From contig DATBZH010000037.1 in assembly GCA_036513255.1 (NCBI GenBank), positions 15,542 through 79,541 on the forward strand: 64,000 nucleotides of DNA. Reading direction: 5' to 3'. Source of the DNA: Candidatus Sulfotelmatobacter sp. (GTDB lineage: Bacteria > Acidobacteriota > Terriglobia > Terriglobales > Acidobacteriaceae). The notes under the pieces are model-generated. The model did no database searches, was not told the origin of the DNA, and saw only the letters and a list, made by a program, of their open reading frames with translations. This document shows, piece after piece, positions 28,672 through 33,612 of the stretch; position 1 is the first letter of the stretch; each line of letters starts with the position of its first letter. A program made the translations under genes and the position numbers.

Positions 28672-29661
28672 TTAGGCTCCGCCTCCTGTTTTTACTTCTT
28701 CCAGCGTGCAGTCACTGGGATCTTTATCATCGCGCAAGCCTAGAAAAACTGGGGCGCGTAACTTCGGTCCGCTTCCGCTGGTCGCGCCCTCAGTCCAATC
28801 GGCGAACTCAATCTCGGCTACCAGTTCCGGTTTGACCCAATAGACTTTGCGCAGAGCTTCCACTTTGCCGGGGAAGGGATTTTGTTTTGTCTCCAGCTTC
28901 TTCAGGCGGCTCCAGACTTCGGCCAGGGTCTTCTGATCGAAGCCGCTGCCTGCCTGGCCCACATGGATCAAATTCTTCTTCTTGTCATAGAGTCCCAGAA
29001 CGATTGATCCAAAATGCGCGCGAGTGCCTTCGGGTTCTGTATATCCTCCGATGACGCATTCGATGCGATGCGTGATCTTGATCTTGAGCCATTCTCGGCT
29101 GCGCTGCTCGTGATAAGGGCTGTCGCGGCGCTTGGCCAGAATGCCTTCCAGGCCTTTTTCCCGCGCCATTGCAAAGAGCGCTTTGCCTTGCTCTTCGTAG
29201 TGATCGGAATAACGCATGGAATCGCCCGGCGTGAGCAAGGACGCAAGCTTCCGCTTGCGCTCTTCGAGCGAGACGCGGCGCAGATCGTAGCCATCGAGAT
29301 AAAGAAGGTCAAAGACGTAATAGAGCACAGGCACATCGGCTTTGGCGACAGTGCGGCGGCCGCCGGGACGAAATCCCGTGCGCTGCTGCATCAGGCTGAA
29401 AGAAGGTCTTCCCTGCTCGTCGAGCGCGACCACCTCACCGTCGAGAATCGCGGTCTTCGCCTTGACCAACTGCGGCAGATCTTTCAGTTCGGGATAACGC
29501 GCCGTCAGATCATTCTGATTGCGTGAAACCAGGCGCGCTTTTCCGTCTTCGATAAACGCGACAGCGCGATAGCCGTCCCACTTGATTTCAAACAACCACT
29601 CGGGGCCGTCAAAGGGCTCATCGACGGGCGTGGCCAGCATAGGATGGATCGTGGACGGCAT
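28672..29661 (-). CDS. ligD: ATP-dependent DNA ligase, LigD ligase domain
   Basis: 329 aa. The adenylation motif I is WLFEIKWDGYRAV (KxDG), followed by EGILAKR and an OB domain. The reading frame stays open upstream to 29856 (see finding). Confidence 0.85.
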   Translation of the reverse strand: MPSTIHPMLATPVDEPFDGPEWLFEIKWDGYRAVAFIEDGKARLVSRNQNDLTARYPELKDLPQLVKAKTAILDGEVVALDEQGRPSFSLMQQRTGFRPGGRRTVAKADVPVLYYVFDLLYLDGYDLRRVSLEERKRKLASLLTPGDSMRYSDHYEEQGKALFAMAREKGLEGILAKRRDSPYHEQRSREWLKIKITHRIECVIGGYTEPEGTRAHFGSIVLGLYDKKKNLIHVGQAGSGFDQKTLAEVWSRLKKLETKQNPFPGKVEALRKVYWVKPELVAEIEFADWTEGATSGSGPKLRAPVFLGLRDDKDPSDCTLEEVKTGGGA

Positions 29662-29806
29662 TGGCCGTTTGACGGCGCCGTCGAGGTCAGAAGTTTTAAA
29701 CGCAGAGACCGCAGAGGACGCCGAGGGTTTTGAACTTTTCTTACTCTGAGCAGGGGGTGCGGACGGTAAATCGAGTTCGGACGAGAGCGTGGTATCGTCG
29801 TTATTT

Positions 29807-29838
29807 TTCTCGGAGGCCTTTGCGTTCTCGGCGTTTAA
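29807..29838. repeat. REP-like arm copy at the LigD domain junction
   Basis: TTCTCGGAGGCCTTTGCGTTCTCGGCGTTTAA compared with 21671-21702 GTCTCGGCGTGCTCTGCGTTCTCGGCGATTAA. The two share TCTCGG and a 12-nt identical core GCGTTCTCGGCG. Both are followed by TGT and a T-rich stretch. Confidence 0.65.
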
Positions 29839-30569
29839 TGTTTTTTTTTTGCGCCGCTAGTCGCGGCTTTCTTGTCGAGTTTTGCCACCGCATCGGCCAG
29901 CCAAGCAGCTTTTAGTTTGCCGCGTCCCGAGGGCTTGCTTCGCCATTCCGCCGATCCCTGATCGCCGGCAATTTCGGCCAAACTGCGTTTGCTCAGAACC
30001 GACGAATCGAACCCATCGATGTCGAATCCTTCTACTACGTCGTCGTCATGCTTCTTGATCATTAACCATTCGTTGCCTTTGCTTCCCGGTCGCCGACCGC
30101 GCATCTTAACTAGGGCGAAGTCTCCCTTGAGCCGTTTGCCTGCCAGGCGAAATTTCAAATCGCCTTTCGCCAGCATCGCCGCCGCTTCGGCTTCGGTGCC
30201 TGGCACGTATTTTCCGTTTACTGGCAAGGGTGAGCGCGGCTGCCAAGTGCCAACATCCCATACCATCACCGTACCTGCGCCGTAGTTATTCTCGGGAATG
30301 ATCCCTTCGAAGTCGAAGTAGGAGACCGGGTGATCTTCCACCTGCATGGCCAGCCGCTTGTCCGCGGGATCAAGCGACGGGCCTTTGGGGACGGCCCAAG
30401 ATTTCAAAACGCCTTCCATCTCCAGGCGAAAATCGTAGTGCAAGCGGGTGGCGTCGTGTTTCTGCACGACAAAGCGATTTCCTGCTTTTTTTTCGAGCTT
30501 GGCCGGAGGTTCAGGCGTGTCCTGGAATCGTCGTTTGCGTGCGTACTCTTCGAGGGCCATGAATGCCAA
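29835..30569 (-). CDS. ligD: LigD 3'-phosphoesterase (PE) domain protein
   Basis: 244 aa. YARKRRFQDTPEP, FVVQKHDATRLHYDFRLE and LKSWAVPKGPS are the LigD PE-domain signatures. It ends ...GAKKKH* inside an A10 run. Confidence 0.85.
   Translation of the reverse strand: MAFMALEEYARKRRFQDTPEPPAKLEKKAGNRFVVQKHDATRLHYDFRLEMEGVLKSWAVPKGPSLDPADKRLAMQVEDHPVSYFDFEGIIPENNYGAGTVMVWDVGTWQPRSPLPVNGKYVPGTEAEAAAMLAKGDLKFRLAGKRLKGDFALVKMRGRRPGSKGNEWLMIKKHDDDVVEGFDIDGFDSSVLSKRSLAEIAGDQGSAEWRSKPSGRGKLKAAWLADAVAKLDKKAATSGAKKKH
29841..29850 (-). other. A10 homopolymer (T10 on + strand) at the PE / ligase frame junction
   Basis: Counted directly as ten consecutive T at 29841-29850. The PE frame reads GCA AAA AAA AAA CAT TAA. 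The ligase frame reads CGC AAA AAA AAA ACA TTA AAC. Confidence 0.9.
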
Positions 30570-30678
30570 TTGTAGAATAATCCCCTGCTCTCGCTTCGAA
30601 AACCAGCCCAGGCGTTGCGTCCAACTTTTGAAACTCGCCTAACCCGTTCAGATTAAACACTTTAGAAGCACCTTGTTG

Positions 30679-30708
30679 TTGACAGGAATCACGCATTCCG
30701 AGTACACT
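30679..30708 (+). promoter_or_regulatory. candidate sigma70-type promoter for the large secreted protein
   Basis: TTGACA (30679-30684), an 18-nt spacer, then TACACT (30703-30708). This would give a leader of about 95 nt before the ATG at 30808. Confidence 0.35.
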
Positions 30709-30807
30709 AAAGGGAGTTTATCCCTACGGGCTTTAGCTAGCCTCCCCTCCCTTAGTAGAAAACTGGGTAGACCCACGGAAACTTCCGTTCGAACCGGAGA
30801 AATCGTA

Positions 30808-33612
30808 ATGGGCACAGCTAGCTCCACTCTGCTACGGGTTTCGGCGTTTTTGCTCCTTGCAGCCGGCTTTTCCGCGCACGCCCAAACCGTCACGACCTTT
30901 GAGGGAATTGACGCTTCGCAATTGTCCAAACCGCTGCTGGACTTTGATCCCAATGGCGCGGTCGGAACCAAGCAGTATATGGAGTGGGTCGATGTTTATT
31001 ACCAGGCCTGGAGCACGACCAGTCCGTTTACCGCGGTTTGGTCCAAGCCGCAAGTTGGCACCACGCCTTTTACAGCCAACGGCCTCACGAATTGCTCCAC
31101 CGTCAATGGCGACGGTATCGTCAACTTCGACCGGCTCGCGTCGCGCTGGATCATTGCCGGCCACAATCAATTAACCTCGACGATAACTAGCTATTACTAC
31201 TGCGTCGCTATTTCCAACACCGACGACCTGACTTCGAGCAATCTTCAGTGGTTCACTTATGCGTTCCCCTTGAATTCCATTCTCGGGACCAATTCCCAGG
31301 GCACTCTGTATTTCCCCGACTGGCCCAAAATCGGTACCTGGTCCGATGCCTACTATGTGGGAATGGACTTTCAAGACACCAATAACGGCTTTCAGGAAGA
31401 TGGCGTAGTCGCCTGTGCGCTGGACCGCTCCGACATGCTGATTGGCGCTACCGCGCTGCCTCCACAGTGCTTTCGCACTCCGACGAGCGGCGGCAGCCTG
31501 TTTACCGCGCACAGTCTTGAGCCGGCCGATGTGGAAGGCACGACCGCGCCGCCGGCGGGCAGTCCCGAATATTTCGTGAGCATCCAGAATCCAGTCATTG
31601 ATGGCGTCACGACCACTTCCGACACATTTAACCTGTGGCAGTTCCATGTGGATTGGTCGAACCCGGCGAACTCCACGTTCACCGAAAGTACCGTCTCTGC
31701 GCCGGTTTACACGCCGGGGTGTTACAACGTCAGGTTTCCTACCAATACGGTTTGCGTTCCTGAGCCTTCGACGGCGAGTACCAACCAGCCCATCGATTCC
31801 GTTGGCGACCGTTTCATGTGGCGCTTGGCTTACCGGAATTTTGGCACTTACCAGTCGTATCTCGCCAGCCACACCGTGCAAGTTGGCACCGGAGCCTTGA
31901 GCCAGACCGGAATCCGCTGGTATGAACTGCGCGGCAACGGCGTGCCCGCCATTTTTCAGTCGGGAACAGTCAGCCCCGATTCGTCACTGTACCGCTTCAT
32001 GCCCAGCATCGCGCAGGACCAGAGTGCGAATGCAGCCGTAGGTTACAGCGTCTCCAGCGCTTCGACGCATCCCGGCATCCGCGCTTCCTATTGGAATCTG
32101 ACGAATCAGACTACGCCCACCGAGCTTTCGCTGTTTAGCGGAGCGGGGGACGAAGAAAATTCTTACAAATGGGGCGACTACACCAGCATGACCGTTGATC
32201 CCGTTGGCGGCTGCGCTTTCTGGTATGTGAACGAATATTTCAACACCAATCAGACAGGCACGGGAAAACCAATCTGGCAGACGCGCATTTCAACGTTCAC
32301 CCTGCCGTCATGCGGAACAGTGACGGTGTCGCCCACGAGTCTGACGTTTGGTTCGCAGGCGGTGGGAACGACGAGCGCGACACAGAACGTCACGCTTACC
32401 AACACCCTCAGCACCGCTTTGACCATCAACAATATTTTTGGCAGCGGGACGAACCTCTCAGATTTTGGGCAGTCGAATGACTGCGGGTCGAGCGTTCCCG
32501 CCGGTGATTCCTGCACCATCGGCATAACCTTCACGCCCACTGGCACGGGCACTCGAACCGCTACTCTGAACATTTCCGATAGCGCCGGCAACAGCCCGCA
32601 AACTGTGGCTCTGACCGGCACGGGAACCAATTCTGCGACCATTAGCCTTTCCACCACCAGCATCAATTTCGGCAATCAGGCTTACGGCACGACGAGTGGA
32701 GCGTCGCAAATCACCGTCAACAATACGGGTGCCTCGACCGTAACTTTTTCGAGCATTGGACTTACGGGAACGAATGCTGCCAGCTTTGGCGAGAGCGACA
32801 ACTGCGTACCCACACTGGCGGCCGGCAAAACCTGCGCCATCAACGTAACTTTCAGTCCTGCAGCGGCAGCCAGCTATAGCGCTGCGGTCACTCTGACTGA
32901 CAATGCCGCCAACAGCCCGCAGAATGTTTCGCTGACGGGAACTGGAATTGTGCCAGTCACTCTTTCGGCGAGCAGCCTGGGCTTTGGCACGGTTCTGGTG
33001 GGCAGCAGCAGCACGGCTTCGCCAGTAACACTGAACAATAAGATGTCGGTGGCGTTGACCGGCATTACAGTGGCCGCGACAGGGACCGGGTTTAGCCAGA
33101 CCAATACTTGCGGCAGCAGCGTCGCCGCCGGAGGACAGTGCAAGATCACGGTCACCTTCACGCCAACCGTCGCCGGCTCTGAAACAGGCGCGGTCACCAT
33201 TACCGACAATGCAGCCAACAGTCCGCAGAAGCTTGCGCTGACGGCTTTCGGCCAACTGCCCGTGAATTTGAATCCAACGGCGTTGGCATTTGGCACGGTC
33301 AAGGTTGGCGCGACCAGCGCCAGCAAGTCCGTGGTCGTGGGCAACAATGAGAAGACTACGCTCACCCTCAGCAGCATCGTTCTGGGCGGAGCGGATCCTG
33401 GCGACTTTTCGCAGACCGGCAACACGTGTGGTGCAACGCTGGCCGCCGGCGCCACGTGCACGCTGACCTACACGTTTGCTCCAGCAAAGATCGGCGCACG
33501 CACCGCTACGGTTACACTTACAGATAGCGCTTTGACTAGCCCGCAAGTTATAAAGCTCAACGGCACGGGCCAGACGGCAACGATCGTCAAGGCCAGACTG
33601 ATAAGGCCCTAA
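30808..33612 (+). CDS. large secreted protein with four C-terminal choice-of-anchor-D (HYDIN/ASH-like Ig) repeats
   Basis: GGAGA lies upstream of the ATG at 30808. The signal peptide is MGTASSTLLRVSAFLLLAAGFSAHAQ. An N-terminal region of about 500 aa has no recognised motif. Four repeats of about 105 aa follow (32317-33573), each with L.FG...VG..S....V.L.N......FS....C...LAAG.SC...V.F.P...G...A.L...D.A..SPQ...L.G.G. Confidence 0.8.
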   Translation: MGTASSTLLRVSAFLLLAAGFSAHAQTVTTFEGIDASQLSKPLLDFDPNGAVGTKQYMEWVDVYYQAWSTTSPFTAVWSKPQVGTTPFTANGLTNCSTVNGDGIVNFDRLASRWIIAGHNQLTSTITSYYYCVAISNTDDLTSSNLQWFTYAFPLNSILGTNSQGTLYFPDWPKIGTWSDAYYVGMDFQDTNNGFQEDGVVACALDRSDMLIGATALPPQCFRTPTSGGSLFTAHSLEPADVEGTTAPPAGSPEYFVSIQNPVIDGVTTTSDTFNLWQFHVDWSNPANSTFTESTVSAPVYTPGCYNVRFPTNTVCVPEPSTASTNQPIDSVGDRFMWRLAYRNFGTYQSYLASHTVQVGTGALSQTGIRWYELRGNGVPAIFQSGTVSPDSSLYRFMPSIAQDQSANAAVGYSVSSASTHPGIRASYWNLTNQTTPTELSLFSGAGDEENSYKWGDYTSMTVDPVGGCAFWYVNEYFNTNQTGTGKPIWQTRISTFTLPSCGTVTVSPTSLTFGSQAVGTTSATQNVTLTNTLSTALTINNIFGSGTNLSDFGQSNDCGSSVPAGDSCTIGITFTPTGTGTRTATLNISDSAGNSPQTVALTGTGTNSATISLSTTSINFGNQAYGTTSGASQITVNNTGASTVTFSSIGLTGTNAASFGESDNCVPTLAAGKTCAINVTFSPAAAASYSAAVTLTDNAANSPQNVSLTGTGIVPVTLSASSLGFGTVLVGSSSTASPVTLNNKMSVALTGITVAATGTGFSQTNTCGSSVAAGGQCKITVTFTPTVAGSETGAVTITDNAANSPQKLALTAFGQLPVNLNPTALAFGTVKVGATSASKSVVVGNNEKTTLTLSSIVLGGADPGDFSQTGNTCGATLAAGATCTLTYTFAPAKIGARTATVTLTDSALTSPQVIKLNGTGQTATIVKARLIRP

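Follow-up and report, generated by a model that had tools for sequence, protein, structure and literature searches.

The window analyzed here is a stretch of 64,000 nucleotides (nt) of DNA from a bacterium of the genus Candidatus Sulfotelmatobacter, and its minus strand carries a LigD gene of non-homologous end joining (NHEJ) whose 3'-phosphoesterase (PE) half and ATP-dependent ligase half are written in two different reading frames that meet at a run of ten A's. This split is real in the DNA and heritable, and selection acts on the run, on the frame of the linker, on the ligase and on the zero-frame stop. The reading that we favor, with a probability of roughly 0.58, is that of one gene in two frames, in which the run is a selected slippage site yielding both PE alone and a PE-ligase.

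At the junction, the minus strand reads ...GAC AAG AAA GCC GCG ACT AGC GGC GCA AAA AAA AAA CAT TAA, and the features around it are the following:

30569..29835, minus strand: open reading frame (ORF) of the LigD 3'-phosphoesterase, zero frame, ending AKKKH*
29853..29867, minus strand: GC-rich hairpin GCCGC-gacua-GCGGC, 5-6 bp, ending 2 nt before the A-run
29859-29857, minus strand: TAG stop of the ligase (-1) frame, located shortly before the run
29850-29841, minus strand: A10 run at which the frames meet, proposed as the slippage site, with A_AAA_AAA in the PE frame
29837-29835, minus strand: TAA stop of the zero frame, two codons past the run
29662..29856, minus strand: 65-codon linker in the ligase frame, open and without a start codon, RRKKKTLNAEN...AVKRP
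28672..29661, minus strand: NHEJ ATP-dependent ligase domain (nucleotidyltransferase and OB fold), annotated from the ATG at 29661

The PE ORF comprises 244 amino acids (aa) from the TTG at 30569 and 241 aa from the ATG at 30560; the latter is likely the real start, and the form of 241 aa has also been recorded from other assemblies. Relative to PE, the ligase is in the -1 frame, which is open from 29856 to 28672 and reads RRKKKTLNAENAKASEKNNDD...VKRPMPSTIHPMLA, with its first ATG, GTG or TTG at 29661, 65 codons downstream of 29856. The TAA of the window is formed by the rare Leu codon TTA and the A of the next codon of the ligase frame (ACA TTA AAC). An original prediction, which had described a PE ORF ending in the A10 followed by CAT TAA and a ligase frame open for 65 codons before the annotated ATG, agrees with the sequence and with the frame analysis; its estimate of about 640 aa for the single PE-ligase created by one extra A becomes, on computation, 632 aa with the TTG start or 629 aa with the ATG start.

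Both halves match their family models. The PE domain is recognized by PF13298 (E=1.7e-44) and TIGR02777 (E=2.8e-63, 212 bits vs a cut-off of 144), and the ligase domain by PF01068 (E=1.2e-35), PF04679 (E=3e-27) and TIGR02779 (E=8e-99, 330.6 bits vs a cut-off of 227.75). In the source genome (4.66 Mb, 56% G+C, 121 contigs, 80% complete), the ligase of the window is the sole match above the NHEJ-ligase cut-off.

How common is this arrangement among the relatives? The gene was present in 284 of the 300 species representatives of Candidatus Sulfotelmatobacter searched. The best 150 of these 284 matches were listed and 147 of them classed by the length of the open frame, which gave 89 split and 58 fused genes. 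A detailed set of 59 loci was distributed as follows:

Ligase frame -1, with A9-A12 where the two frames briefly overlap: 29 loci
Ligase frame +1 at the run: 1 locus
Frameshift elsewhere: 3 loci
Fused: 26 loci, 20 of them with A9 or A10 at the same place

When these 59 loci were combined with 75 named ones and duplicates were removed, 126 distinct loci were available:

Split -1 at the run: 51 loci (A9 in 33, A10 in 17, A12 in 1)
Split +1 at the run: 2 loci (A9 and A10)
Frameshift elsewhere: 5 loci, with the run present and not at the junction
Fused: 68 loci (A10 in 25, A9 in 20, A8 or shorter or no run in 23)

All 53 loci that are split at the run have A9-A12 at the junction, and no split genome with a run shorter than 9 occurs among the 126 loci. 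In a sister family of the same order, all 11 evaluable loci (12 were fetched) are fused, with Arg/Pro-rich linkers and without an A-run, which points to a device specific to this genus.

The state of the gene follows descent. On a maximum-likelihood tree of the two domains, built from 57 loci with the linker excluded, the split/fused label changes 9 times, vs a mean of 19 when the labels are shuffled, and none of 500 shuffles gave so low a number. Well-supported clades made only of split loci contain 8, 5, 5 and 3 members, the last being the window and its two nearest species. Since the state follows the tree, the split is not random error, and since it is stable within clades, fast on/off switching is disfavored.

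The original prediction had left two options for the A10, a slippage-prone switch between fused and split forms or an error in the homopolymer, and the first is the one supported. In the second, the true sequence would be A11 and the gene an ordinary fused PE-ligase; 10-A runs are indeed error-prone in some chemistries, a few frameshifts do occur elsewhere in the gene in long-read metagenome-assembled genomes (MAGs) of the genus, and one near relative has A11. Even so, we consider an error very unlikely. The exact ligase protein of the window is encoded in three further assemblies of its species, on metagenome contigs of which one comes from JGI and two, with MEGAHIT-style names, from ENA. Over 3.5 kb these contigs are 99.86-99.97% identical to the window, all three have A10, and one belongs to a different strain, because it has a 3-nt indel 20 nt upstream. 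Four assemblies of the species thus agree on A10, short-read ones of the MEGAHIT type from different samples among them. Within the window's clade, a second lineage was assembled three times, always with A10 and identical flanks, another was assembled twice and has A12 via a C-to-A change with the same -1 layout, and a further one has A10. The nearest species, at a synonymous distance (dS) of 0.8-0.95, is split -1 like the window, with A12. Clusters at 90% identity around the products of the window hold 20 short ligase forms vs 1 fused form, along with 13 short PE forms. An exact look-up of the window's hypothetical fused protein in the protein collection gave no match, and the best fused relatives in a set of 5.8 billion proteins are 84-85% identical.

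The composition of the genome tells against an error too. It has only 12 A/T runs of at least 9, only two of which reach length 10, and that of LigD is the only run of at least 9 at a frame junction inside one gene. The second of length 10, a T10 on contig C114, is in frame within a long ORF, and the remaining ones, ten A9/T9 runs, lie in frame, between genes or where two ordinary genes overlap. An error-prone assembly was rejected on this basis: none of the 12 other homopolymer runs of at least 9 (11 A/T, one G9) is at a single-gene frame junction. The only other run of at least 9 A's where two long frames overlap is the A9 at C46:18255-18263 (PIIVLKKKGGHGG...); it was rejected as a frameshift and looks, from its sequence only, like a MotB-like start overlapping a MotA-like end.

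Nor does sequencing technology explain the split pattern. In each contig-count class of the 147 species, 48-73% of the genes are split and, with the technology inferred from the names of the records, the loci with a run of at least 9 are split in 8 of 20 short-read-named and 16 of 34 long-read-named MAGs; a long-read artefact as the general cause was rejected from these contig counts and record names. Frameshifts elsewhere in the gene all come from long-read-type MAGs or few-contig assemblies. Frame changes of LigD away from the A-run were seen in six loci (L039, L050, L058, L091, L116 and L169), five after removal of duplicates; ordinary indel errors are the probable cause, and the loci allow a rough estimate of the background rate for this type of data.

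Another question is whether the ligase is a gene of its own. Stand-alone LigD domains exist in other bacteria, and the locus could consist of two ordinary adjacent genes, a PE and a ligase starting at the ATG at 29661 or at another internal start, with the open frame upstream as the remnant of a recent split. Gene callers annotate the locus in this way, and a start at Met 29661 would yield a complete ligase domain. Several observations make this explanation improbable. No sequence like a Shine-Dalgarno (SD) element was found before the annotated ligase Met. The Met of the motif MP(S/T)xIHPMLA and the (V/I)KRP that precedes it are equally conserved in fused and split genes, the annotated Met corresponds to an internal residue of the fused orthologs, and in one split genome ATA takes the place of that ATG. 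The five codons before the Met have a three-base periodicity, with entropies at codon positions 1/2/3 of 0.57/0.27/1.46 in split and 0.46/0.35/1.40 in fused genes. The first start codon in the linker is usually 20-80 codons past the run and is not conserved. An independent start at 29661 was therefore rejected on the conservation of the upstream codons and the want of a conserved start. The original prediction had set against a slippage site the case of orthologs consistently split, with a proper ribosome-binding site and start for the ligase and no open frame upstream; the orthologs are often split, but the upstream frame is always open and neither the start nor a ribosome-binding site is conserved.

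The linker itself also speaks against two genes. In 30 split loci with the junction at the run, stops were counted in 0 of 1868 codons of the ligase frame, vs 80 and 69 in the other two frames, and in 30 of 30 cases the frame is open and constrained up to the run despite linker turnover and dS values above 1. The linkers are 40-94 codons long, and their lengths differ by whole codons only. Just past the run, where the three-base periodicity is seen as well, the split clades keep T-K-E-(L/I/V)-(N/T)-(T/A) in the -1 frame, with synonymous ACA, ACT and ACG, while the zero frame has an unconserved Q, R or L there. A linker motif, (L/I)(N/T)(T/A)(A)E(D/N)A(E/K), is conserved just past the run in fused and split genes alike; it is often repeated and encoded by SD-like GAGGA strings, the example in the window being LNAENAK at 29835-29815.

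A single-base disruption of the frame is the commonest first step of gene decay, and the ligase half might have been inactivated by it, the gene being a pseudogene in the making. This is the least likely of the explanations considered. A stop inside either domain occurs in none of the 59 loci, pairs of split genes at dS 0.6-1.6 have a ratio of nonsynonymous to synonymous change (dN/dS) of 0.04-0.09 in the ligase, no different from pairs of fused genes, and the decaying copy would be the only ligase of its genome above the NHEJ-ligase cut-off.

Selection extends to the run and to the stop. The run is retained across split clades at dS 0.6-1.6, and a linker run of at least 9 A's is kept in 103 of 126 loci; AAA makes up 39-44% of the Lys codons, and AAA AAA AAA is found in 0 of 34 KKK triplets inside the domains. 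In two split clades, 13 of 14 loci keep a zero-frame stop formed by NT[A/G] and the A that follows in the ligase frame, while the first base of that codon varies. The stop-forming codon is TTA, GTA or ATA in 9 of the 14, while A-ending L/I/V codons account for 6.8% in the domains of the gene and ATA for 2.8% of its Ile codons. Taken together, these results of selection indicate that the ligase frame is translated by ribosomes starting at the run, and that the termination of the short product is likewise preserved.

How, then, would one gene give two products? Under standard decoding, a free phosphoesterase of 241 aa would be released, ending two codons past the A10. The ligase domain and its 65-codon linker, both in the -1 frame and both lacking a start, would be translated only if, at the run, the message gained an extra A or the ribosome moved back by one base, and the product of such a slip would be a PE-ligase of about 630 aa. 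The most likely route would be slippage of RNA polymerase on at least nine A's, known from Thermus dnaX and Shigella mxiE, to which a -1 shift of the ribosome on A_AAA_AAA may contribute; the slippery heptamer GC A_AAA_AAA does lie in the phase of the zero (PE) frame. Selection would keep the run across the genus, slips in replication would toggle the default of the DNA between split and fused over evolutionary time, and either allele should give both products, in differing ratios. Slippage during expression, its polymerase or ribosome step and its efficiency are inferred, and we consider slippage at the level of expression somewhat probable.

What is known of such sites fits this proposal. 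Efficient slippage in vivo is known for runs of 9 A or T, the A9 of Thermus dnaX leads to mixed mRNAs and two products (PMC1088944, PMC5009743), and in Shigella mxiE one non-templated nucleotide at a 9-nt run fuses two ORFs (PMC1088944). No promoter-like or terminator-like site was found between the halves on the gene strand, and no downstream frameshift-stimulating structure was found either: the 101 nt past the run fold no better than shuffles (z +0.89). The lack of a promoter, a terminator or a downstream structure fits a slippage that needs the run alone. Between the two routes, transcriptional slippage is favored because the minimum run of 9 in split genomes matches what transcription requires and not the 7 nt of a ribosomal site. 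Upstream of the run, the hairpin of the window has a predicted energy of -10.5 kcal/mol (z -2.5); five distinct sequences from the clade of the window retain it, with one compensatory change from C-G to U-A and one one-sided change to U-G. Hairpins of nascent RNA, when located 5' of a slippery motif, can drive slippage (PMC1088944, PMC5009743), and that of the window is a possible stimulator of this kind, offered as a lead only.

Several observations weigh against a selected slippage site. The upstream hairpin is not general in the genus, with a mean z of -0.79 in split and -0.38 in fused loci; as a genus-wide feature it was rejected, and it is found only in some clades, that of the window included. 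A minority of the long-read split calls may be errors, given the frameshifts seen elsewhere in the gene. The excess of -1 over +1 junctions (51 vs 2) could come from deletion-biased slippage in replication. The length of the tract also changes between close relatives. One locus (L066) has A11 and a fused PE-ligase of 665 aa, while two others at 99.3% identity (L067 and L068) are split, with A10; the +1 outlier of the window's clade (L035) has A10 and is split, while its 95%-identical relative (L171) has A9 and is fused. These differences in tract length imply that the run also slips in replication and that the default encoded in the DNA shifts over evolutionary time. Switching at the level of the DNA thus exists and could alone be the functional mode.

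The A11 strain deserves a closer look for another reason, namely, that it realizes in nature the fused product foreseen in the original prediction; its protein reads ...SGAKKKTLNAENAK... / ...ASGAKKKTLNAENAK... It differs from the two A10 assemblies by 21 single-nucleotide polymorphisms (SNPs). In the comparison of L066 with L067, 20 of the 21 SNPs (L066 positions 1023-1504) are in or just upstream of the PE half and one is past the run, a clustering that suggests recombination with a breakpoint near the linker.

Phase variation at the level of the DNA is the main rival of the slippage reading, with which it is not mutually exclusive. In such a contingency locus, replication slippage would turn the NHEJ ligase ON (fused) or OFF (split) within the population, the window would be the OFF allele, and the ligase would come only from revertant cells, without any slippage in expression. 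We regard this as possible, although rather unlikely. It would account for the polymorphism of the tract between near-identical strains (99.3% and 95%) and for the at least 9 state changes on the 57-locus tree, and it too predicts selection for the homopolymer. However, the states are clustered by clade and not scattered, the window's clade has about 20 independent short forms vs 1 fused, and A10 is present in all four assemblies of the species and in all three of its sister lineage. A ligase that is OFF in nearly all cells over dS values above 1 is hardly compatible with a dN/dS of 0.04-0.09 and with a linker that is free of stops and constrained in its codons. Moreover, transcriptional slippage is to be expected at any run of at least 9 A's (PMC1088944, PMC5009743).

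As for the partners of LigD, the 64-kb window contains neither Ku nor the LigD polymerase (Pol) domain, as the original prediction had stated, and both were located elsewhere in the genome. Ku is on contig C108 (PF02735, 166 bits), away from ligD, and the Pol domain is represented by TIGR02778 matches in separate ORFs on contigs C21 and C98. With Ku on a third contig, the NHEJ genes are dispersed. No Pol domain was found within the ligD gene of the window, which consequently is not a three-domain LigD. The stand-alone Pol genes, C21:1615-2355 (L002) and C98:181-924 (L003), are each located at the end of a contig, and a repeated region that breaks the assembly may be the reason. Divergent from ligD, at 30673-33612 on the plus strand, is an ORF of 979 aa with many immunoglobulin (Ig)-like repeats; the Pfam matches on record for its gene in other assemblies are ASH, Cep192_D4 and HYDIN_VesB_CFA65-like Ig, and its product is probably a large surface or secreted protein.

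To what extent is this new? Full-text literature searches found no published recoding, frameshift or slippage in LigD. The GeneTack survey has a Mur ligase only and no LigD, and the searched text of a 2016 review on recoding does not mention LigD, DNA ligase or end joining. Well-supported recoding in bacterial cellular genes is, to our knowledge, rare: prfB, dnaX and a few others. In this genus, a large one of abundant peat and soil Acidobacteria, a core NHEJ enzyme is apparently expressed via a conserved slippery run.

A wider proposal can be put forward, only tentatively: the poly-A tract may be a selected recoding device that sets the ratio of free PE to full-length NHEJ ligase from one transcript, a ratio that might respond to the state of growth via RNA polymerase slippage, and such devices may have arisen independently in several soil lineages, this genus included. 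If that were true, LigD would be, beside dnaX, a second widespread cellular case of slippage-based expression of two products. Annotation pipelines render such sites as "two genes" or "pseudogenes". Were expression via the slippery run confirmed in this genus, the dosage of the NHEJ ligase would be set by the infidelity of a polymerase or of a ribosome, and many "split LigD" annotations would be explained. The genus would also offer a natural system of coexisting fused and split alleles, in which the interplay of slippage in replication and in transcription is measurable, and a caution against "polishing away" such frameshifts in MAGs.

Collectively, these data invite a comparison with systems already described. 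One of the closest is dnaX of Thermus thermophilus (tau/gamma, A9), which, like the gene of the window, has at least 9 A's in its coding region at a domain boundary and from which a long and a short product with a common N-terminal part are obtained without the need for an RNA structure. The orthologs of dnaX use different solutions, as do those described here (PMC1088944, PMC5009743, PMC3711429). The differences are that the DNA of Thermus dnaX encodes the long product and the slip makes the short one, whereas the DNA of the window encodes the short one, that the gene family is unrelated to NHEJ LigD, and that slippage in the window is inferred. In mxiE of Shigella flexneri (T9/U9), a downstream ORF that lacks a start is fused to the overlapping upstream one only in transcripts with one additional nucleotide at the 9-nt run (PMC1088944), and the logic proposed for the window is alike. 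Unlike LigD, mxiE is a transcription activator of the secretion system of a pathogen and has no domain-by-domain enzyme architecture. We know of no mxiE-related genes for which both fused and split alleles exist.

The -1 frameshifting of E. coli dnaX and of IS3-type elements (A_AAA_AAG) has in common with the window a phased slippery heptamer, a -1 shift and a zero-frame stop close by. However, neither a stem-loop nor a pseudoknot was found downstream in the window, in most loci the last base of the run is A and not G, and runs as short as 7-8 A's, which a ribosomal site would allow, occur in no split genome of the genus set. The IS630 element of Roseiflexus, a case of stem-loop-mediated transcriptional slippage in the account given in PMC5009743 of Penno et al. 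2015, resembles the window's clade in its GC-rich hairpin just 5' of the run, with a terminator-like geometry. In that same account, its motif is U5C5 and a base is removed, whereas the window has A10 and a base would be added; the hairpin of the window, moreover, is 2 nt off the run and is not conserved across the genus.

The contingency genes of Neisseria, Haemophilus and Campylobacter also have a selected homopolymer within an ORF and a tract that differs between close strains. The window departs from them in that it encodes a cytoplasmic repair enzyme of a free-living soil bacterium, with states that are stable within clades and an OFF frame that is under coding constraint. Lastly, the LigD of the Pseudomonas type (PE-Lig-Pol, NCBIfam PRK05972) has the same order of PE and then ligase, and both catalytic domains match the model, while in the window's genome Pol is separate (C21 and C98) and the two halves are in different frames. 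The gene of the window is a two-domain (PE-Lig) LigD, and the mechanism favored for it is one of the Thermus dnaX and mxiE kind.

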